Assembly: GCA_963809695.1 (NCBI GenBank)
Contig: CAWEKI010000001.1
Span: 21,018 to 85,017 of the forward strand
Source: an uncultured Bacteroidota bacterium
GTDB lineage: Bacteria > Bacteroidota > Ignavibacteria > UBA10030 > UBA6906
Direction: 5' to 3'
Length of the DNA stretch: 64,000 bases
Shown here: in pieces, positions 22,241-62,807 of the stretch
Position numbering within the stretch: position 1 is the first letter of the stretch
How the letters are laid out: the number at the start of each line of letters is the position of its first letter
The notes under the pieces: model-generated
What the model was told of the DNA's origin: nothing
Database searches by the model: none
Seen by the model: only the letters and a program-made list of their open reading frames with translations
Program-made: the position numbers and the translations under genes

Positions 22241-22313
22241 GGGCGCGTAGCTCAGGGGTAGAGCATCTGCCTTTTAAGCAGAGGGTCGTTGGTTCGAAGC
22301 CAACCGCGCTCAC
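22241..22313 (+). tRNA. tRNA-Lys (anticodon UUU)
   Basis: Cloverleaf folds by eye: acceptor GGGCGCG/CGCGCTC, D-arm GCTC..GAGC, anticodon stem TCTGC/GCAGA with loop CTTTTAA, T-arm GTTGG-TTCGAAG-CCAAC. Confidence 0.85.
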
Positions 22314-22328
22314 AATACCCCCCAGCAT

Positions 22329-22370
22329 TCAGACCGGGGTCTGACCCTGGTCTGACCCTGGTCTGTCCCT
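22329..22370 (+). repeat. REP-like palindromic repeat cluster (left), ggtctgaccc units
   Basis: tcagaccggggtctgaccctggtctgaccctggtctgtccct; contains a cagacc/ggtctg hairpin. A near-identical cluster lies at 23057-23116. Confidence 0.6.
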
Positions 22371-22598
22371 CAACCGCGGCGAGCTTTCCTGCGATTTTCC
22401 ATCTCTTCTAAAGCATTCCAGATTTTTCTCGCCTCTGGGGAAAGAAATGCCTGAGCTGACTCCGGGTCAGCGGTATTAAACTCCTGAAAGAAGTTGGCAT
22501 ATTTCGCAGGCCCTCCCACAAGAGACCATAGCAAGGAACGCTTGTCCGGGACTGTATCCGCTTTGTTGACGTACTCGCTGCAACTTGAGTACCGCCAT

Positions 22599-22961
22599 TT
22601 AATGCGAGAGGCGCAGAAGACTCTCTGGATCCGGCACAACTACTCCGCCATAGCGACCCTGGAAAACGTGCCCGCTTCTGTTCAGGCGTCTGTTGAGCCA
22701 CTGGGCATACGACTGGGTCACCTTCTTCATGAAACGTGAGATCGCATACGGCTCATGCTGCTGCACAATCAAATGAACATGATTGGGCATGAGCGAGTGG
22801 ACCAGCAGAGAGACAGCGATCGCCTTTTGTGCATCCAGCAGGAACTCCATGTACCGATCATACTCGCGACTGCAGTGAAAGAGTTGACCGCGGTTGACGC
22901 CCCGGTTGAAGGCGTGGACGATGATATTTGGAACGACAAGATAATCTCTGTTGCTTCGCAT
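22599..22961 (-). CDS. RAYT / IS200-like Y1 (HUH) transposase (REP-associated tyrosine transposase-like), 120 aa
   Basis: HUH motif PNHVHLIVQQ and catalytic-Tyr motif HVFQGRY (WQxR[Y/F] type, ~43 aa after HUH as in E. coli YafM-type RAYTs). N-terminal NIIVHAFNRGVNRGQLF. The ORF track runs the frame on to 23996 only because no stop occurs; ATG is at 22961. Confidence 0.65.
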   Translation of the reverse strand: MRSNRDYLVVPNIIVHAFNRGVNRGQLFHCSREYDRYMEFLLDAQKAIAVSLLVHSLMPNHVHLIVQQHEPYAISRFMKKVTQSYAQWLNRRLNRSGHVFQGRYGGVVVPDPESLLRLSH

Positions 22962-23056
22962 GGTGGCTATCTCCTTCTCGTTAGACTGCCCATATAGATA
23001 TACAACGGACGAGGCGTTTTTTCGAACAGGAATGAAGAAAAAGTCGTCGTCGTCTT

Positions 23057-23116
23057 TGGGGTCAGACCGGGGTCTGACCCTGGTCTGGCCCTGACCTGTC
23101 CCTGGTCTGACCCTCG
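23057..23116 (+). repeat. REP-like palindromic repeat cluster (right)
   Basis: ggggtcagaccggggtctgaccctggtctggccctgacctgtccctggtctgaccct; gggtcagacc/ggtctgaccc is a perfect hairpin; same family as 22329-22370. Confidence 0.6.
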
Positions 23117-27420: not shown

Positions 27421-27503
27421 GCGGAAGTGGCGAAATTGGCAGACGCACCATCTTGAGGGGGTGGCGCCCAAAAGGCATGCGGGTTCAAGTCCCGCCTTCC
27501 GCA
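27421..27503 (+). tRNA. tRNA-Leu (anticodon GAG), type II with long variable arm
   Basis: Acceptor GCGGAAG/CTTCCGC, anticodon stem CCATC/GGTGG with loop TTGAGGG, long variable arm, T-arm GCGGG-TTCAAGT-CCCGC. Confidence 0.85.
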
Positions 27504-27850
27504 CGAAAACGACCTCTCTAACCCCTTGTCAATCAAGGGGTTATTTGTTTTTCTCCCAGAAGGCGGGACTCTCTATGCGCCCCTGGTCCTGCCTCCGCAC
27601 GTGTCGGATCATCCAATCATTTCTCCGTCTAGGTCCTTTTCGTTCCCGCCATTCCTTCGTTGGGTCTTTGCTCCATGGGTGAGGGAAGGGAGACATCCGG
27701 TACGGCTCAACCAGTATGCTCGAGTGATTGCAGTAACGCCGGATCCCTGTCCACCTGTTACATGGCAGCCTCGGGCGACATGTTCATCGGCAGCGGGAGG
27801 TGATCGCTCGTAGGGCATCCTTGGAAAAGGTTCTGCACCGATACGAGCGA
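27481..27850 (+). repeat. tRNA-Leu 3'-end + terminator + ~350-bp flank module (copy A1)
   Basis: Diverged copies at 61684-62060 (A2), 46310-46410 (partial A3) and 62232-62300 (tRNA-3'/terminator-like). Shared motifs: ttcaagtcccgccttccgca, aaccccttgtcaatcaaggggttatttgttt, ctgtccacctgttacatgg, gctcgtagggcatcc. Confidence 0.6.
27520..27552 (+). terminator. rho-independent terminator after tRNA-Leu
   Basis: aacccctt-gtcaatc-aaggggtt hairpin followed by atttgttttt. Confidence 0.6.
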
Positions 27851-42881: not shown

Positions 42882-44567
42882 ATGAAAGTCATCATCGTTG
42901 GTGGAGTAGCCGGGGGTGCGTCGTGTGCGGCGCGTCTGCGCAGACTGGAGGAGAAGGCTGAAATCGTCCTCGTGGAACGCGGACCGTATGTCTCATACGC
43001 GAACTGCGGCCTTCCGTACCATGTCGGGGGTTCGATCGAGCAAGAGGGGAGCCTCCTGGTGGCGACGGAGGAGATGTTCCGGGCAGTGTTCGCGGTTGAT
43101 TGCCGAACGAACTGCGAGGTGGTCGGGATCTCGGCAAAGGCGAAAACAGTGGACCTGAAGAACACCCAAACGGGTACAGTCACGACAGAGAAATATGACA
43201 AGCTTGTGCTTTCCCCCGGTGCGGCGCCGATCCGCCCGCCGCTTCCCGGTATCGACCTTCCGGGCGTGTTCTCTGTGAGAACCGTGCCTGACGCACGTGA
43301 GATCCGCCAGTGGCTTGACCGGGACTCGGACCGTTCCGTAGGGAATCCCTTCACAGGCGTCGACACGGTGTCGAAGCCAAAACATGCGGTAGTGGTCGGA
43401 GGAGGGTTCATTGGTCTGGAGATGGTCGAAAACTTCGTGGACCGCGGGCTTGGTGTCACGCTCTTGGAGAAGCTCGATCAGGTCATGCCGCCGCTCGATC
43501 CCGAAATGGCGCGCCTGGTGGAGCGCTACCTGGTCAGGCACGGCGTTCAGCTTGTGCTCAATGATGGTGTTGCCGGATTCCGTAAGCCGGCTGCCGGGGG
43601 GCTGGAAGTCATGACGGAATCAGGCAAGGCCTTCCCGGCGGACATCGTGATCCTGGCCATCGGTGTGCGTCCGGAAACCGCGCTGGCGAAGATGGCTGGC
43701 ATCGAGATCGGGAAGCGGGGCGGGATTCGGGTCGATGAGCAAATGCGTACGTCCGATCCGGATATCTTTGCCGTCGGCGATGCGGTGGAAGTCAAGGACT
43801 TTGTGACAGGACAGTGGACGCTCATCCCGCTCGCCGGGCCGGCAAATCGCCAAGGGCGGATTGTCGCTGACGTGATCGCCGGCCGCACATCCCGATTCCG
43901 GGGGACGCAGGGAACCTCGATCTGCAAGCTCTTCGATGCGGCGATCGCTCAGACCGGCGTCAGCGAGAAAATGCTGAAGCAGCTGGGTGACGCCGATTAC
44001 GAGAAGATCTATCTCTACCCGAACTCGCACGCGGGGTACTACCCGGGTGCCAAGCTGCTCCCCATGAAGGTCATATTCCGGAAGTCGAACGGTCGGCTCC
44101 TCGGGGCGCAAGTGCTTGGCGAGGATGGGGTCGCCAAACGGATCGATTCCTTTGCCATGGCGATCCAGATGGGGTGCACGATCTACGACCTGGAGGAATC
44201 GGAGTTGAGTTACGCGCCGCCGTTCGGCAGTGCCAAGGACCCGGTGAACTTCGCGGGCATGGTCGCGGCCGATATTCTCCGGGGCGACATGCCGATCACC
44301 CACTGGGAGTCGTTGAATGGCGCTTTCCTGCTTGATGTACGGAATCCGCAGGAAGTGGACGCTGAGGCGGTTCCTGGCGCGGTCAACATCCCGCTGCCTC
44401 AACTCCGCGCCCGCTTGGGTGACCTTCCCCGCGATCGGGAAATCAACATTATTTGTCGATCGGCGGTGCGAGCCTATTTTGCGACGCGGATTCTCCTGCA
44501 AAGTGGGTTCAAGGCAAAGAATATTTCCGGCGGCATGCTGGCACGGTCGCATTGTACCGGGGATTGA
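42882..44567 (+). CDS. CoA-disulfide reductase family flavoprotein with C-terminal rhodanese domain (CoADR-RHD / NADH-dependent persulfide reductase-like), copy 1
   Basis: FAD motif VIIVGGVAGGAS; redox Cys in SYANCGLPYHVGG; NAD(P) motif VVVGGGFIGLE; C-terminal rhodanese with active Cys (ICRSAVRAY). Confidence 0.8.
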   Translation: MKVIIVGGVAGGASCAARLRRLEEKAEIVLVERGPYVSYANCGLPYHVGGSIEQEGSLLVATEEMFRAVFAVDCRTNCEVVGISAKAKTVDLKNTQTGTVTTEKYDKLVLSPGAAPIRPPLPGIDLPGVFSVRTVPDAREIRQWLDRDSDRSVGNPFTGVDTVSKPKHAVVVGGGFIGLEMVENFVDRGLGVTLLEKLDQVMPPLDPEMARLVERYLVRHGVQLVLNDGVAGFRKPAAGGLEVMTESGKAFPADIVILAIGVRPETALAKMAGIEIGKRGGIRVDEQMRTSDPDIFAVGDAVEVKDFVTGQWTLIPLAGPANRQGRIVADVIAGRTSRFRGTQGTSICKLFDAAIAQTGVSEKMLKQLGDADYEKIYLYPNSHAGYYPGAKLLPMKVIFRKSNGRLLGAQVLGEDGVAKRIDSFAMAIQMGCTIYDLEESELSYAPPFGSAKDPVNFAGMVAADILRGDMPITHWESLNGAFLLDVRNPQEVDAEAVPGAVNIPLPQLRARLGDLPRDREINIICRSAVRAYFATRILLQSGFKAKNISGGMLARSHCTGD

Positions 44568-45569: not shown

Positions 45570-46133
45570 TGCAGGAATTTGATGATAAGTGGGTCCAGGG
45601 GGGTGCATCCGGTACTGAGGAACTCCTGGGGAGCGGCGATATTCAATCACTGGCCGATCTGGGAAACAGTATTGCGACCGTGCGTGGGATGCGCCTCGTG
45701 CCTTTCGGACCAAATGCCGTGATAACGCTGGCAGTAGTGACCGTGGCGCCTCTGCTCCCCCTGACGCTGACAATCTTCTCAGCTGAGGAGTTGCTGCTCA
45801 AGGTGATCCAGATACTATTGTGATCCAGCAAGTAGGGGGAAATATACACCGCCATCAAAGAAGCGGGAGATTTCGTTCAGACGCCCAAATTCTGCCTTAT
45901 CCGGTAGGGGAGGGTGATCGTCCGGACGCATCGTGGACACCTATTACAAATGCTCCAAGCTGAGCCGGAATCTTGTCCACCTGTTATCTGCAGCGATCGG
46001 CAATCTTCTGCCTCGGCAAAAGAAGACAATCATTTGTAGGGCGTCCTCGGAATAAATTCGGGCACTCAGAAAATTCAGACCGCGCATCTCTCACAGCGCG
46101 AGATTTGAACCACTTCATCACACGTCGGTGGAT

Positions 46134-46162
46134 AAAATCATGCGCCCTTATTGCGCCCTTGG
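46134..46162 (+). repeat. 29-bp exact repeat aaaatcatgcgcccttattgcgcccttgg (second copy at 61476-61504)
   Basis: Exact match between two noncoding regions; the motif itself contains a direct repeat gcgccctt x2. Confidence 0.7.
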
Positions 46163-46477
46163 TGCCGCCTTCTTCAGTGTTGATCATCTGCAATCACTTC
46201 AACGTCAAGACTTTTTTTGTTTCCTGCCGTTCCTTGACTGGACCGCGCTGCATGTTGGTGGTGGATGACGATCAGTTCGGTCGTGGATCCATGATGCATT
46301 CCTCTCATTGCGCCGGAACCTTGTCCACCTGTTATATGGCCTCCTCGGCTGACACATGGGGGGTCGGCTCCGGGAGATCACGGCTCGTGGTGCATCCTAG
46401 AAAGGGCCCCGAGCGAGCGAATTCTAGTGAGCGAGCCGAGGGACCTCGGAACCATGAATTTCACATGAGAACGAGTA

Positions 46478-46512
46478 GACTCGCCCCACCAAAACACAAG
46501 GTGGGGCGAGTC
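46478..46512 (+). repeat. hairpin repeat gactcgccccacc-loop-ggtggggcgagtc (homologous copy at 62535-62572, where it is followed by a T-run, terminator-like)
   Basis: Same 10-12 bp stem sequence in both copies, followed in both by ttggtgggg. Confidence 0.6.
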
Positions 46513-46670
46513 TATTTCCTTGGTGGGGAAGATGCGACTCGCTCAGGGCATTGCCCCGACCTTTGCCTCCGGGGAACTGGGCGAGCGGGAGGAGGGGTTG
46601 CGGCCTAAGCCCCTTTCGTTCTTCCGCGGGCCCGCCAAGCATTTGTAGCTACAGGAGCTCCCCGCAACTT

Positions 46671-50792: not shown

Positions 50793-52478
50793 ATGAAAGT
50801 CATTATAGTTGGTGGAGTGGCAGGCGGAGCCTCCTGTGCGGCGCGTCTGCGCAGATTGGATGAGAAGGCTGAAATCGTGCTCGTGGAACGCGGACCGTAT
50901 GTCTCATACGCGAATTGCGGCCTTCCGTACCATGTCGGGGGTTCGATAGAACAGGAATCCAGCCTCCTGGTGGCGACGGAACAGATGTTCCGTGCAGTAT
51001 TCGCGATCGATTGCAGGACAAGCTGCGAAGTAATCGGCATTTCAGCCAAAGAGAAAACAGTCAAGCTCAAGAATCACGCAAATGGTGAAGTGACCACTGA
51101 GAAATATGACAAACTGGTGCTTTCCCCCGGGGCGGCGCCGATCCGTCCGCCGCTTCCGGGGATTGATCTCCCGGGAATATTTTCTGTAAGAACAGTACCT
51201 GATGCGAGACATATGCGCGAATGGTTAGACCGTGATATATTAAATACCGGAATGAATGAATACAGCGGCGTTAACACAATTGCAAAACCCCTCAATGCAG
51301 TTGTCGTTGGAGGTGGATTCATAGGTCTGGAGATGGTTGAAAACTTAGTGCATCGCGGACTTAATGTAATATTGGTTGAAAAGTTAGATCAGGTTATGCC
51401 GCCGCTCGATCCTGAAATGGCTCTTGTAGTAAAACGTTATATGGAAAGACACGGCGTTAAAGTTGAACTTAATGATGGCGTTGCAGGATTTCGTAAATCT
51501 GATGATGGAATGATTGAAGTACGTACGGAATCAGGAAAAGTTTACCCTGCAGAAATTGTTATCCTTGCAATCGGTGTTAAGCCCGAAACAGAATTAGCGA
51601 AGATGGCAGGAATCGAACTCGGTAAAAGAGGAGGATTTAAAGTTGATGATCAGATGCGGACTTCAAACGCAGATATCTTTGCTGTTGGTGATGCAGTTGA
51701 AGTAAAAGATTTCGTTACCGGAGAAATGACTCTTATTCCCCTTGCAGGACCGGCAAACCGGCAAGGAAGAATTGTCGCTGATGTTCTTTGCGGTCGTAAT
51801 TCGCGCTATCGTGGTACACAGGGGACCTCAATCTGCAAAATATTTGATGCGGCAATTTCACAAACAGGTGTGAGTGAAAAAACACTTACAAGACTTGGTG
51901 TGACCGACTATGAAAAGATTTACACATATCCGAACTCGCACGCGGGATATTATCCCGGCGCAAAAATACTTGTTATAAAAACTCTGTTCCGCAAATCCGA
52001 CGGGAAAGTGCTTGGTGCCCAGGTGCTTGGTGAAGAGGGTGTTCCCAAAAGAATTGACTCTTTTGCAATGGCCATTCAGATGGGCTGCACTATTTACGAT
52101 CTGGAAGAATCAGAACTCTGTTACGCCCCGCCATTTGGTAGTGCCAAAGACCCGGTTAACTTTGCAGGCATGGTTGCAGGAGATATTCTGCGGGACGATA
52201 TGCCGATCATCCACTGGGATACGCTTGGTAACGGGTTCATTTTAGATGTGCGTAATCCGCAAGAACTTGAAGTAGAGTCTGTTCCCGGCGCTGTGAATAT
52301 CCCTTTGCCGCAACTTCGGTCCCGTCTGGGAGAACTTCCTCGTGATCGAGAAATCCATGTCCTTTGCCGTTCAGCTCAGCGAGCCTATTATGCCACTCGC
52401 ATACTTCTGCAAAATGGATTCACAGCAAAGAATATTTCCGGCGGAATGCTTGCGCGTTCACATCGTGCGGTGAGTTAG
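50793..52478 (+). CDS. CoADR-RHD flavoprotein, copy 2 (mosaic: high-GC 5' ~390 bp nearly identical to copy 1, remainder low-GC)
   Basis: Same motifs as copy 1. First ~390 nt are near-identical to 42882-43270 at nucleotide level. From ~51180 codon usage shifts to A/T-rich (tta, aaa, gat). Confidence 0.8.
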   Translation: MKVIIVGGVAGGASCAARLRRLDEKAEIVLVERGPYVSYANCGLPYHVGGSIEQESSLLVATEQMFRAVFAIDCRTSCEVIGISAKEKTVKLKNHANGEVTTEKYDKLVLSPGAAPIRPPLPGIDLPGIFSVRTVPDARHMREWLDRDILNTGMNEYSGVNTIAKPLNAVVVGGGFIGLEMVENLVHRGLNVILVEKLDQVMPPLDPEMALVVKRYMERHGVKVELNDGVAGFRKSDDGMIEVRTESGKVYPAEIVILAIGVKPETELAKMAGIELGKRGGFKVDDQMRTSNADIFAVGDAVEVKDFVTGEMTLIPLAGPANRQGRIVADVLCGRNSRYRGTQGTSICKIFDAAISQTGVSEKTLTRLGVTDYEKIYTYPNSHAGYYPGAKILVIKTLFRKSDGKVLGAQVLGEEGVPKRIDSFAMAIQMGCTIYDLEESELCYAPPFGSAKDPVNFAGMVAGDILRDDMPIIHWDTLGNGFILDVRNPQELEVESVPGAVNIPLPQLRSRLGELPRDREIHVLCRSAQRAYYATRILLQNGFTAKNISGGMLARSHRAVS

Positions 52479-61067: not shown

Positions 61068-61469
61068 ATGAGTGACCGCACGGGCACATGTCTTGCCATT
61101 GATGCATCAGGAACAGTCTACATGGGAAATTACAATGGCCTTTTTAGAACGCTCGAAACGACCTTCACTGAAATCCCCGTTTCTTCTACTGAGGTGCGGG
61201 CCGCCTCGTTCCAGCATTGCCCCAACTACTCCAATTATCCTTTCAACCTTACGACAATTATTCACTACGACCTGACGTATAGGTCATACGTGACCCTTGC
61301 GGGCTTCAATACGGTCGGGCAGCAGATGGTCACACTGGTCAACGGCGAGGGCGAGGAGGAGTACCATGAGGTCACATTCATTGCAGAAGGCCTAGCATCA
61401 GGGGTCTACTTCTACCGGATTCAGGCCAGTGGCTATACCCAGACGCGTAGGCTCTGCCCAATTCGGTAG
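61068..61469 (+). pseudogene. orphan 3' fragment encoding a T9SS C-terminal sorting domain (CTD)
   Basis: C-terminal ~80 aa match the T9SS CTD pattern (NYPNPFN.TT.I.Y.L......V.L..YN..G..V.TLVN......G.H.V.F.A..LASGVYFYR.QA..F..T.K). Only ~50 aa of cargo precede it, and the upstream frame is open but has no start. Confidence 0.55.
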
Positions 61470-61683
61470 GTTGAAAAAATCATGCGCCCTTATTGCGCCC
61501 TTGGCTGTGCAATACATGTAAGAGATGGAAGAGATGAACGTGGCGATCTGGCGAATACGGCCTAGATTTCGCTGATCGCCACATCCGTCTTTGGTCCCGG
61601 TCTCCGCCCGAGGGCGTAGACCGAGGATCCTCGTCCCGACATCGAAGTTAGCATCGGCCTCAGCCTCGCTAACTTCGGTCGGG

Positions 61684-61709
61684 ACGGGATTCAAGTCCCG
61701 CCTTCCGCA
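61684..61709 (+). other. fossil tRNA-Leu 3' fragment (T-arm + acceptor 3' strand), part of module copy A2
   Basis: cgggattcaagtcccgccttccgca matches the last ~23 nt of tRNA-Leu(27421-27503). Followed at 61734-61764 by a copy of the same terminator hairpin (aacccctt-gtcaatc-aaggggtt-atttgttt). Preceded by an 18-bp bulged hairpin (61635-61683). Confidence 0.55.
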
Positions 61710-62807
61710 CAAAACCTCTTCTCTAACCCCTTGTCAATCAAGGGGTTATTTGTTTGGCCCCCAGAAGTCCGGACTCTCTGTGCGCCCTTGATCCCGCCCT
61801 CCAAATCGTTACATCACGCAACCGCTTCTCCCTCGAGGTGATATTCCTATTGGCTGATCCTTCGTTCGGAATTTGCTGCATGGGCTATAGAAGGGAGACT
61901 CCTGAAGACTGAATCATCATCTGCAAGTGATTCCCATTGTTCCTGAACCATGTCCATCTGATAAACGGAATCCTTCGATGACATCCTCATCTGCCCGTGG
62001 AATCGGTCGCTTGTAGGGCATCGTCGGAAGAAATTCCGACTCCACGTGGCGACAGAAGAGCCGCCCGGCTCACGATGAACTGAGAGCACGAGCGGTCTTT
62101 GTGTTTCGACATCAATCGCTGCGTCCGTATCGGTACCTTGACGTGGGAAAGAGATGCATCAGATACAAGAGATGGAAGCTGCCATTTGGCGAAAGCCGGG
62201 AAATTCCGCTCCATGCGCAAATGATCTTTGGTTCGAGTCCTGCTCGCGGAGCGAGAATCCCCTTGGTAACACAAGGGGATTTTCATTTCTATTTCGGGGT
62301 GTACCCTTATCTGTACCCCTGACGTATCGACCTGTACCCTTCATTCGATTGATACAAACTGAAACGTACCAAATCCATTTAAAAAAGGCCAGATAAGGGT
62401 TCACCGACCGTTTCGCCGTCCCGATCCGAAGGATCGGGACGAGCCTCGTCCCTCCACCGAAGGTGGAGGGACGGGAGTCCGGCCTGCCCGCCGAAACTGA
62501 TTCACAAGTGCAGGCGGGCTCGCGGACCTGCTCGACTCGCCCCACCAAAGCCAATGGTGGGGCGATTTTTTTGGTGGGGCTCACTCGCGGCTCCTTCGGA
62601 ACCCCGCCACAATCCGATGTTGAGTACATCCTTCGCTATCATGTCATTATTACACTGATGGGTAAAAATGCCACCAGGGTATTGTTCACGGGGCATATTT
62701 CAGCCCTGTTGGTCCAAATCCGCATCTGGCATGAATCATGCGCTGTTCACAATGCCGAATAGGACAATAGTGCGGAAGGACATCTGAGAACAAAAGGACT
62801 CCGGGCA

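Follow-up and report, generated by a model that had tools for sequence, protein, structure and literature searches.

The locus considered here occupies positions 22,241 to 23,116 of a 64-kb stretch of DNA from an uncultured Bacteroidota bacterium (contig CAWEKI010000001.1; the whole stretch of 64,000 nucleotides is referred to below as the window). It consists of a minus-strand open reading frame (ORF) of 120 amino acids (aa) with the histidine motif of the Y1 (HUH) nucleases/transposases, an out-of-frame remnant of the same gene, two arrays of a short palindromic repeat unit that bracket both, and a neighbouring gene for tRNA-Lys; their coordinates are collected in Table 1. An earlier note, made from the letters of the window, had read this locus as a REP-associated tyrosine transposase (RAYT; REP, repetitive extragenic palindrome) together with its REP sequences at the 3' end of a tRNA gene, and the analysis described below follows up that reading.

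Table 1. Coordinates of the features of the Y1 locus and of the short intergenic repeats elsewhere in the window
Feature	Coordinates	Strand	Basis or remark
tRNA-Lys (anticodon TTT)	22241..22313	+	ARAGORN; Rfam tRNA 68.8 bits; neighbour, outside the element
Repeat array 3' of the Y1 gene	22329..22370	.	repeat family D1, inverted pair I5
Out-of-frame C-terminal remnant of the Y1 gene, 76 codons, KWRYSS...RRG and stop	22370..22600	-	translation
Deletion junction and premature stop, CAT TA/A ATG (slash at the junction)	22599..22601	-	DNA alignment; codon position read from the sequence
N-terminal 120-aa stump of the Y1 (HUH) gene	22599..22961	-	translation, Pfam, NCBIfam, PDB profile alignment
5' untranslated, promoter-like region with conserved block	22962..23058	-	alignment with relatives
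Repeat array 5' of the Y1 gene	23059..23114	.	repeat family D1, inverted pairs I3 and I8
Short intergenic repeat sets	27735-27764, 45961-45990, 46309-46338; 46124-46162 / 61466-61504; 46478-46516 / 62534-62572

The Y1 gene of the window and its disruption

The minus-strand ORF opens with an ATG at 22961, closes with the stop codon TAA (22601-22599) and contains the stretches 'MPNHVHLIV' and 'GHVFQGRY'. It scored 46.2 bits against the Pfam family PF01797 (Y1_Tnp, cut-off 23), and the intact relative P0002 scored 44.9 bits against the same model. An ORF of this length with an HUH motif was what the earlier note had described, and the description was borne out, coordinates included. The motif itself, N60-H61-V62-H63, aligns with H59-M60-H61 of E. 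coli TnpA_REP (Protein Data Bank, PDB, entry 4ER8). The same 120 residues had also been taken for the whole protein, which did not hold: homologues found with the two minus-strand frames of the window joined as the query are 210-211 aa long, with query coverage of 95-99%. The exact 120-aa ORF has no record in the assembly collection. A threshold of E<=1e-3 gathers 21,960 representatives of what is thus a large family; at E<=1e-30, the small immediate clade amounts to 19 representative clusters in a set of 1.8 billion proteins.

The protein alignment showed that the window protein is short of about 15 aa after 'LLRLSH' and then resumes in another frame, and the DNA alignment showed that 47 nt present in three relatives (47 gapped columns) are gone from the window. 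The loss shifts the frame and turns the TAT codon of the catalytic tyrosine into the stop codon TAA, the junction reading CATTA/AATGG in place of the TATATCCA...-type sequence. In tblastn with the relative P0001, window 22961-22602 corresponds to residues 1-120 and, in a second frame, 22600-22379 to residues 137-210; the C-terminal remnant likewise aligns with residues 137-210 of P0002. The original stop codon of the gene, TGA at 22372-22370, lies directly against the 3' repeat array, and no second Y1 copy was found in the 64-kb window by tblastn. The stump keeps His61, His63 and the FQGRY strand and has lost the second half of helix alpha-D, which is the seat of both the catalytic tyrosine (Y---N/Q) and the asparagine metal ligand. 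Because the deletion took these two residues and shifted the frame, the window copy is predicted to be unable to cleave DNA, and the Y1 gene of the window is, as it reads in this assembly, a pseudogene. The disruption appears to be recent, since the out-of-frame C-terminal part still has a proportion of nonsynonymous differences (pN) well below that of synonymous differences (pS), as in intact pairs.

To place the catalytic residues, a family profile built from 15 members was searched against the PDB. The best solved relative was E. coli TnpA_REP (4ER8, E 1e-7), in comparison to 0.024 for ISDra2; a phmmer search of P0002 against the PDB returned only a spurious match to VapD, and 4ER8 was reached with the family profile. 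In the profile alignment to 4ER8, 'nhvhL' falls on 'EHMHC', 'vFqgRY' on 'IWQPRF', and 'yihrnPvkAglv' on 'Y115-IYI-N119-PVKHGWV', the active site of TnpA_REP being formed by Y115, H59/H61, N119, H123 and E161 (Messing et al. 2012, PMC3479197). The earlier note had named HVFQGRY as the catalytic tyrosine motif, and this assignment has to be given up: the 4ER8 residue aligned with the tyrosine of 'FQGRY' is a phenylalanine, which argues that this tyrosine is not catalytic, and Tyr115 aligns with the tyrosine of the deleted 'YIHxNP'. By this alignment the true nucleophile and the asparagine ligand sit in the deleted segment, and the relatives carry the tyrosine there as Y121. In the AlphaFold2 model of the intact relative P0002 (mean confidence score pLDDT 91.6), Tyr121 lies within helix 112-128, and the best fold match of the model in the PDB is again 4ER8, with a template modelling (TM) score of 0.74 normalised to the target (Foldseek), in comparison to about 0.6 for the IS200, IS608 and ISDra2 TnpA proteins.

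The profile scores also bear on the class of the protein. Against the NCBIfam equivalog model for REP-associated tyrosine transposases (NF047646, cut-off 80), the window stump scored 27.1 bits and P0002 56.3 bits, and the distant relatives P0007 and P0015 reached 82.2 bits; against the NCBIfam model of IS200 TnpA (cut-off 55) the stump scored 20.6 bits and P0002 18.2 bits. The motifs NHVH, FQGRY, YIH(M/T)NP and W(R/K)YSS are found in P0001-P0003, and likewise in the window except for the deleted Y motif, so the relatives have the Y---NP of class 2, not the Y---Q of class 1. The protein P0002 has 211 aa and no helix-turn-helix (HTH) domain by Pfam, while P0007 (256 aa) and P0015 (283 aa) give weak HTH matches. 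These results supported the assignment of the protein to the class-2 RAYT-like Y1 HUH enzymes, as judged from motifs and profiles, and not to the IS200/IS605 TnpA proteins. The preference of the earlier note for a RAYT over IS200 TnpA therefore stands as far as the closer RAYT profile and fold are concerned, and no TnpB, the partner that the note had said would count against a RAYT, was found among the neighbours; it does not stand for a canonical RAYT, as the profile check that the note had proposed was passed with PF01797 and fell below the cut-off with NF047646.

The flanking arrays and the chromosomal site

Both clusters that bracket the ORF are built of one 11-nt unit (GGGTCAGACC/GGTCTGACCC) with a period of 11 nt; over a stretch of 42 nt, one cluster matches the other with 93% identity and in the same orientation. 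In the orientation of the gene, the upstream array reads AGGGTCAGACC AGGGACAGGTC AGGGCCAGACC AGGGTCAGACC CCGGTCTGACCCC, which is four A-units and one inverted unit with a terminal hairpin GGGTCAGACC-NN-GGTCTGACCC, and the downstream array, from the original stop codon, reads (TGA)GGGACAGACC AGGGTCAGACC AGGGTCAGACC CCGGTCTGAa, which comprises three A-units of 11 nt followed by a truncated inverted one. The units begin with (A/G)GGGTCAG, the terminal hairpin having the form GGGGTCAGACC-NN-GGTCTGACCCC, and the core of the unit, GGTCWGACC, is a 9-nt palindrome in itself. The two arrays are mainly direct repeats of one another with one inverted unit each, and their flanks in the window are ACCCCCCAGCAT / CAACCGCGGCGA and TCGTCGTCTTTG / CGTGGATGAAGG. 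The tetranucleotide GT[AG]G at the foot of the hairpin was not found on either strand in the window, nor was it found in the relatives. Thus, of the REP bracketing proposed in the earlier note, the two clusters of one palindromic unit are real, but they form mainly direct repeats without a REPIN arrangement or a GT[AG]G foot. Rfam recognised nothing over the locus but the tRNA, and primers and viral sequences were all that a literature search for the repeat yielded.

When GGTCTGACCC was searched with at most one mismatch in the 64-kb window, 9 of the 11 matches were inside the two clusters, and the other two were isolated with one mismatch each; beyond these two, no further copies of the unit were dispersed through the window. 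The total of 11 is weak evidence when taken alone (the shuffle mean was 5.07, and 4 of 100 shuffles reached 11), and because it barely exceeds the shuffles the clustering is the signal. The folding check gave a similarly divided result. The window arrays do fold as DNA, with -16.1 kcal/mol (z -2.7) for the upstream array and -11.8 kcal/mol (z -2.3) for the downstream array, but far more weakly than the corresponding arrays of the syntenic relative L001, with -29.0 kcal/mol (z -7.8) and -35.1 kcal/mol (z -9.5), respectively. Compared with the sequences of the relatives, the window hairpins are eroded, with most of one (inverted) arm lost from both arrays.

Three syntenic relatives, L001 (protein P0002), L126 (P0001) and L127 (P0003), have 59-71% aa identity to the window copy by BLASTP and show what an intact locus looks like, that is, a protein of about 210 aa between two arrays of the 11-nt unit GGGGTCAGACC. 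The same units stand on both sides of the gene in all three, the arrays of L001 are longer and symmetrical, and each intact array ends in an inverted unit, which would give a long hairpin on single-stranded DNA. Since the arrangement is found again in these three relatives it is not due to chance, and since the units are recognisable despite saturated synonymous sites in the gene they must have been maintained, whether by selection or by continual homogenisation. More distant homologues carry other flanks: those of P0009 are a different palindrome, those of P0015 (L131) are plain terminal inverted repeats (TIRs), AGGGGTCAGGTCTTGACATTGA and an inverted copy, and P0014 has GGTCTGACCC units upstream. 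From these comparisons, the repeats belong to the Y1 gene and change in step with the protein clade.

The neighbourhood of the gene was read from the gene list of the 41-kb contig that encodes P0002, in which the order is NTP-transferase, GHMP kinase, SSF transporter, Y1, HD_4, CN-hydrolase, response regulator, 1990-aa PAS/GAF kinase, TPM phosphatase and LemA. Together with L001, this contig gives the full order of the relatives, of which L126 and L127 show shorter parts: SSF transporter, repeats, Y1, repeats, HD_4, tRNA-Lys, CN-hydrolase, response regulator and 1990-aa PAS kinase. The HD_4 gene (PF13328) is convergent with Y1 in L001, L126 and L127, and L001 ends within the tRNA-Lys gene, where 46 nt match window 22271-22316 with 96% identity. 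The window has an identical gene order, with the SSF transporter on one side of Y1 and tRNA-Lys and CN-hydrolase on the other, except that no HD_4 homologue was found anywhere in it. The homology between the window and L001 breaks about 3 nt past the tRNA and resumes inside the repeat array (window 22314-22335 versus L001 1744-2580); because the break reaches into the first arm of the array, one end-point of an HD_4 deletion would lie in the palindrome. A loss in the window lineage is the simpler account because P0003, the most distant of the three relatives, also has HD_4. The adjacency to the 3' end of tRNA-Lys, to which the earlier note had drawn attention, is therefore real in the window and without the significance given to it: the relatives place HD_4 between the element and the tRNA gene, and the adjacency is incidental, a secondary consequence without an insertion signature.

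Between the syntenic copies pN was 0.15 to 0.26 in comparison to a pS of 0.64 to 0.79, with the synonymous sites saturated and the claim thus limited to pN being well below pS, with no dN/dS value attached; the pattern indicates long-term purifying selection on the Y1 gene. Upstream of the gene, a block between the hairpin and the start codon is conserved in six of six loci (the window, L001, L126, L127, L122 and L123) and includes a T-run, TCGGAAAAAC and TTGTAATACATATA; it reads T-run ... TCG(G/A)AAAAAC ... TTGTA(A)TA..TATA ... and GGAG, which resembles a ribosome-binding site. This block is probably the promoter or operator of the Y1 gene. It is common even to the clade described in the next section, whose members lack the catalytic residues.

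Homologues without catalytic residues and repeats in other genomes

Five distinct proteins of a sister clade (P0004, P0005, P0136, P0137 and P0138) have lost both HUH histidines and the catalytic tyrosine, NQFDL, TRFDL, CRFDL or EQFQM replacing NHxHL and S or D replacing the tyrosine, and their ORFs are nevertheless full-length, at 210-245 aa. In the one pair compared (L122 136-816 and L123 2524-3153), pN was 0.34 in comparison to a pS of 0.81. The unit of this clade is GGGCCAGGCC, and the flanks of L122 and L123 carry GGGGCCAGGCC-CG-GGCCTGGCCCC, in which the half-site change from T:A to C:G is compensatory. The C-termini 'GARPGPGPP' of several of these proteins are the palindrome in translation. 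These data suggest that the sister clade is a catalytically dead but retained derivative, and an exaptation for DNA binding without catalysis may be indicated because the clade lost HUH and tyrosine yet keeps its ORFs, with a pN well below pS in the one pair compared and compensatory flanks at the two loci L122 and L123. It is conceivable, but in our judgement rather unlikely, that the small clade as a whole is a fixed, domesticated Y1 protein selected to act on its own 11-nt-phased GGGGTCAGACC arrays and not to transpose.

To look for the palindrome elsewhere, the species genomes of GTDB were scanned with the query GGGTCWGACCNNGGTCWGACCC, for which about 2 to 11 sites would be expected by chance (an estimate from base composition). 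At least 120 stretches matched (L002-L121, 8-kb tiles). Among the matches listed, at least nine tiles came from one Acidobacteriota metagenome-assembled genome (MAG; MFD02840.bin.1.397), all reading tgGGGTCAGACCATGGTCTGACCCCac, and at least five each from Massilia sp. TWR1-2-2 and a Gaiellaceae MAG (SMAG_U6153); further matches were from other Thermoleophilia, Ilumatobacteraceae and other Acidimicrobiia, Hyphomicrobiaceae, Pirellulaceae, Saccharibacteria (Candidate Phyla Radiation, CPR) and additional groups. Three or more units at 11-nt spacing were present in 24 of the 120 tiles listed, and multi-copy families of this palindrome exist in some genomes. Within one genome, copies of the hairpin GGGTCAGACC-NN-GGTCTGACCC share extended flanks among the matches listed. 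A Y1 gene stood beside the motif in one tile of these 120, from the Saccharibacteria MAG L034 (38% GC), which has a 143-aa Y1 gene at 85-516 that is about 32% identical to P0014 and carries GGGTCAGACCC units on both sides (22-45 and 538-561); the G+C-rich motif is conspicuous against the AT-rich composition of that MAG. A metagenome scan that used the protein alignment as its query gave four loci only. The occurrence of the GGGTCAGACC-NN-GGTCTGACCC hairpin, in several to many copies, in genomes of Acidobacteriota, Actinomycetota, Proteobacteria, Planctomycetota and CPR suggests a recognition motif that may have been kept across phyla for the subclass of Y1 proteins discussed below.

Several other repeats and duplications were seen in the window. 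The 3' end of tRNA-Leu(gag) (27421-27504), at 27481-27508, recurs at 61687-61714, 34.2 kb downstream, with 93% identity, and is followed by about 190 nt at 75-81% similarity (27506-27694 / 61711-61899), in which both copies have the hairpin AACCCCTTGTCAATCAAGGGGTT, similar to a terminator. The pattern resembles a segmental duplication or the edge of an island; the ORFs near the duplicate (56.5-62.6 kb), which encode CorA, TrmO and a protein like bestrophin, were found to include no integrase. Short intergenic repeats of 30-39 nt, 82-92% identical, occur at about 27.7, 46.0-46.5 and 61.5-62.6 kb (Table 1), one of them being the hairpin GACTCGCCCCACC..GGTGGGGCGAGTC, and their sequences suggest a repeated non-coding module that has no relation to the repeats of the Y1 gene. 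A pair of paralogues of 561 aa, each with Pyr_redox_2 and rhodanese domains, are encoded 7.9 kb from one another (42882-44567 and 50793-52478) and have 70-83% nucleotide identity in the stretches compared. The closest named relatives of the FolC protein of the window are from Bacteroidota/Ignavibacteria MAGs, with 50-56% identity.

Interpretation and comparison with known systems

In general, the analysis suggested that the locus is very probably what is left of a decaying RAYT-like gene for a Y1 (HUH) single-strand DNA nuclease/transposase of the TIRYT/TIRtron kind (subclass 2.1, Bertels group 1), a gene that is fixed in the chromosome and inherited vertically. By analogy with E. coli TnpA_REP and IS608 TnpA, the intact enzyme would bind the flanking hairpins once the DNA is single-stranded, and would cut and rejoin beside them, with a covalent Tyr-5'-phosphate as the intermediate and with a metal ion presumably held by the HUH histidines and by the asparagine of helix alpha-D. 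The window copy, with tyrosine and asparagine deleted, the frame shifted, the hairpin arms lost and HD_4 gone, would be a relic without cleavage activity.

Several points weigh against this reading or limit it. The 47-nt deletion is known from one assembly, in which a mis-assembly could have produced it. Hairpin binding and cleavage are transferred to this clade from E. coli TnpA_REP and IS608. The assignment to the subclass comes from motif signatures and not from phylogeny, the closest members do not have the C-terminal HTH that is typical of subclass 2.1, and the strong hairpins found here stand against a published description of subclass 2.1 without REP-like structures. The HD_4 gene could have been gained in the relatives and not lost in the window, the loss being chosen by parsimony from identity ranks. 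Finally, the dispersal count covers 64 kb only, and no Bacteroidota/Ignavibacteria genome was among the matches listed from the palindrome scan (at least 120 stretches).

A functional RAYT-REP (REPIN) system, in which an active single-copy RAYT disperses REPs through the genome, would account for the RAYT-like profile and fold, for the cognate palindromes on both sides of the gene, for a single-copy and syntenic position like that of domesticated RAYTs, and for the multi-copy families of the palindrome in the Acidobacteriota MAG (at least nine tiles) and in Massilia sp. TWR1-2-2 and the Gaiellaceae MAG (at least five each). We regard it as very unlikely for this locus, as the window gene is frameshifted and without catalytic tyrosine and asparagine, which refutes an active system for the window copy unless the deletion is an assembly artefact; moreover, there is no GT[AG]G foot and no further unit copy in the 64 kb, the score on the RAYT equivalog model, whose cut-off is 80, is 27 bits (56 bits with the intact relative), and the flanks are tandem direct units with no inverted REP pairs. 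An equally small probability is given to the explanation that the protein family at this locus is a domesticated DNA-binding factor acting on its own 11-nt repeats, for example in local regulation or structuring, which the window lineage has lost. The full-length ORFs of the five sister-clade proteins without HUH and tyrosine, the L122/L123 pair with pN well below pS and with flanking palindromes showing a compensatory unit change, the fixed chromosomal position with its conserved upstream block, and an 11-nt period close to one helical turn would all fit such a factor. On the other hand, the window's own clade (P0001-P0003 and P0139-P0141) keeps HUH, tyrosine and asparagine, which argues for retained catalysis there, and pN/pS gives no more than a coarse signal, the synonymous sites being saturated.

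A mobile element of the IS200/IS605 type with subterminal hairpins, inserted beside tRNA-Lys, could explain why the two arrays have the same orientation, as left and right end hairpins do, and the protein is a member of Pfam Y1_Tnp. This explanation is hardly tenable in view of the IS200 TnpA score of 20.6 bits against a cut-off of 55, the Y---NP in the relatives, the lack of tnpB, the single copy in the window, a fold nearer to TnpA_REP than to IS608 or ISDra2 TnpA, and the shared chromosomal position in three relatives whose proteins have 59-71% aa identity and whose synonymous sites are saturated. The last argument also contradicts the explanation to which we give almost no credence, namely that the locus is the remnant of an integrative element or genomic island at the 3' end of tRNA-Lys with the direct repeats as its attachment (att) sites. 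The array does begin 16 nt past the tRNA, and the flanks are direct repeats with 93% identity over 42 nt; however, these repeats have no sequence in common with the 3' end of the tRNA, no integrase ORF lies in 20.5-25 kb, the enclosed 0.7 kb or so holds the Y1 gene alone, the relatives have the HD_4 gene between array and tRNA, and the same units flank homologues in unrelated contexts in L034 and L130.

If the locus is read as a decaying TIRYT-like gene, it is an ordinary one, a decayed copy of an already described kind, and the appropriate annotation is that of a Y1/RAYT-like pseudogene, and neither that of a working REP system nor that of an insertion targeted to the tRNA. The novelty outside Proteobacteria that the earlier note had seen in it is weak, as such genes have already been reported in Acidobacteria, Planctomycetes, Bacteroidetes and Cyanobacteria (PMC3733652, PMC6006769). 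The wider interest lies with the relatives. At least one branch with subclass-2.1/TIRYT motifs has strongly folding hairpin arrays, though the subclass has been reported to be without REP-like structures; a GGGGTCAG-type motif common to homologues of distant phyla, and multi-copy in some genomes, offers a defined substrate for a first biochemistry of TIRYTs; and the sister clade without HUH and tyrosine, yet constrained, would give a clear example of a domesticated Y1 protein that is catalytically dead.

Among the known systems, the IS200/IS605 TnpA proteins (IS608, ISDra2; subclass 1.1) share with the present family the HUH/Tyr core fold and flanking structures in the same orientation on one strand, and recognition of hairpins on single-stranded DNA would be expected in both by analogy; their Y---Q motif, frequent tnpB partner and multicopy mobility are not seen here, and the profile score is 20.6 against 55 bits. 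The canonical RAYT/TnpA_REP proteins (E. coli YafM, 4ER8; Pseudomonas RAYTs; subclasses 2.2 and 2.5) are alike in the Y1 HUH fold, the class-2 Y---NP, and a single-copy, vertically inherited gene with its own palindromes on both sides that vary with the protein clade. They differ in having a GT[AG]G guide tetranucleotide and a conserved WQ where this family has FQ, and the present proteins stay below the NF047646 cut-off, with no dispersed REPs in 64 kb and with 11-nt tandem units in place of inverted REP doublets.

The better-fitting known category is that of the TIRYTs/TIRtrons in subclass 2.1, as judged from motifs. The subclass 2.1 of TnpA_Y1 has the signature NHVH, FQ (or W[EQ]), Y[IV]HLNP and an SS tail (Quentin et al. 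2018, Table 1, PMC6006769), corresponds to Bertels group 1 and probably to the TIRYTs of Di Nocera et al. 2013, carries a C-terminal HTH (DnaA_C/HTH_23/HTH_28-like) at a median length of about 238 aa, and is reported to have no REP-like structures around its genes (PMC6006769). The terminal inverted repeats of TIRYTs/TIRtrons share the sequence GGGGWSAS (Di Nocera, De Gregorio & Rocco 2013, BMC Genomics 14:522, PMC3733652), and some of them are self-complementary and belong to moderately abundant repeat families (PMC3733652). Unlike these, the closest members of the present family are short (210 aa) and without a distal HTH, simple TIRs are replaced by 11-nt units in tandem that are closed by an inverted one, with hairpins of -29 to -35 kcal/mol in the relatives, and the window copy is a pseudogene. 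Like them, the family has NHVH, FQ for WQ, Y[IV]HxNP and the 'SS' tail, a low copy number, no GTAG REP, and repeats whose start, GGGGTCAG, fits the consensus GGGGWSAS; and like some published TIRs, its palindrome is multi-copy in Acidobacteriota, Gaiellaceae and Massilia genomes among the matches listed.

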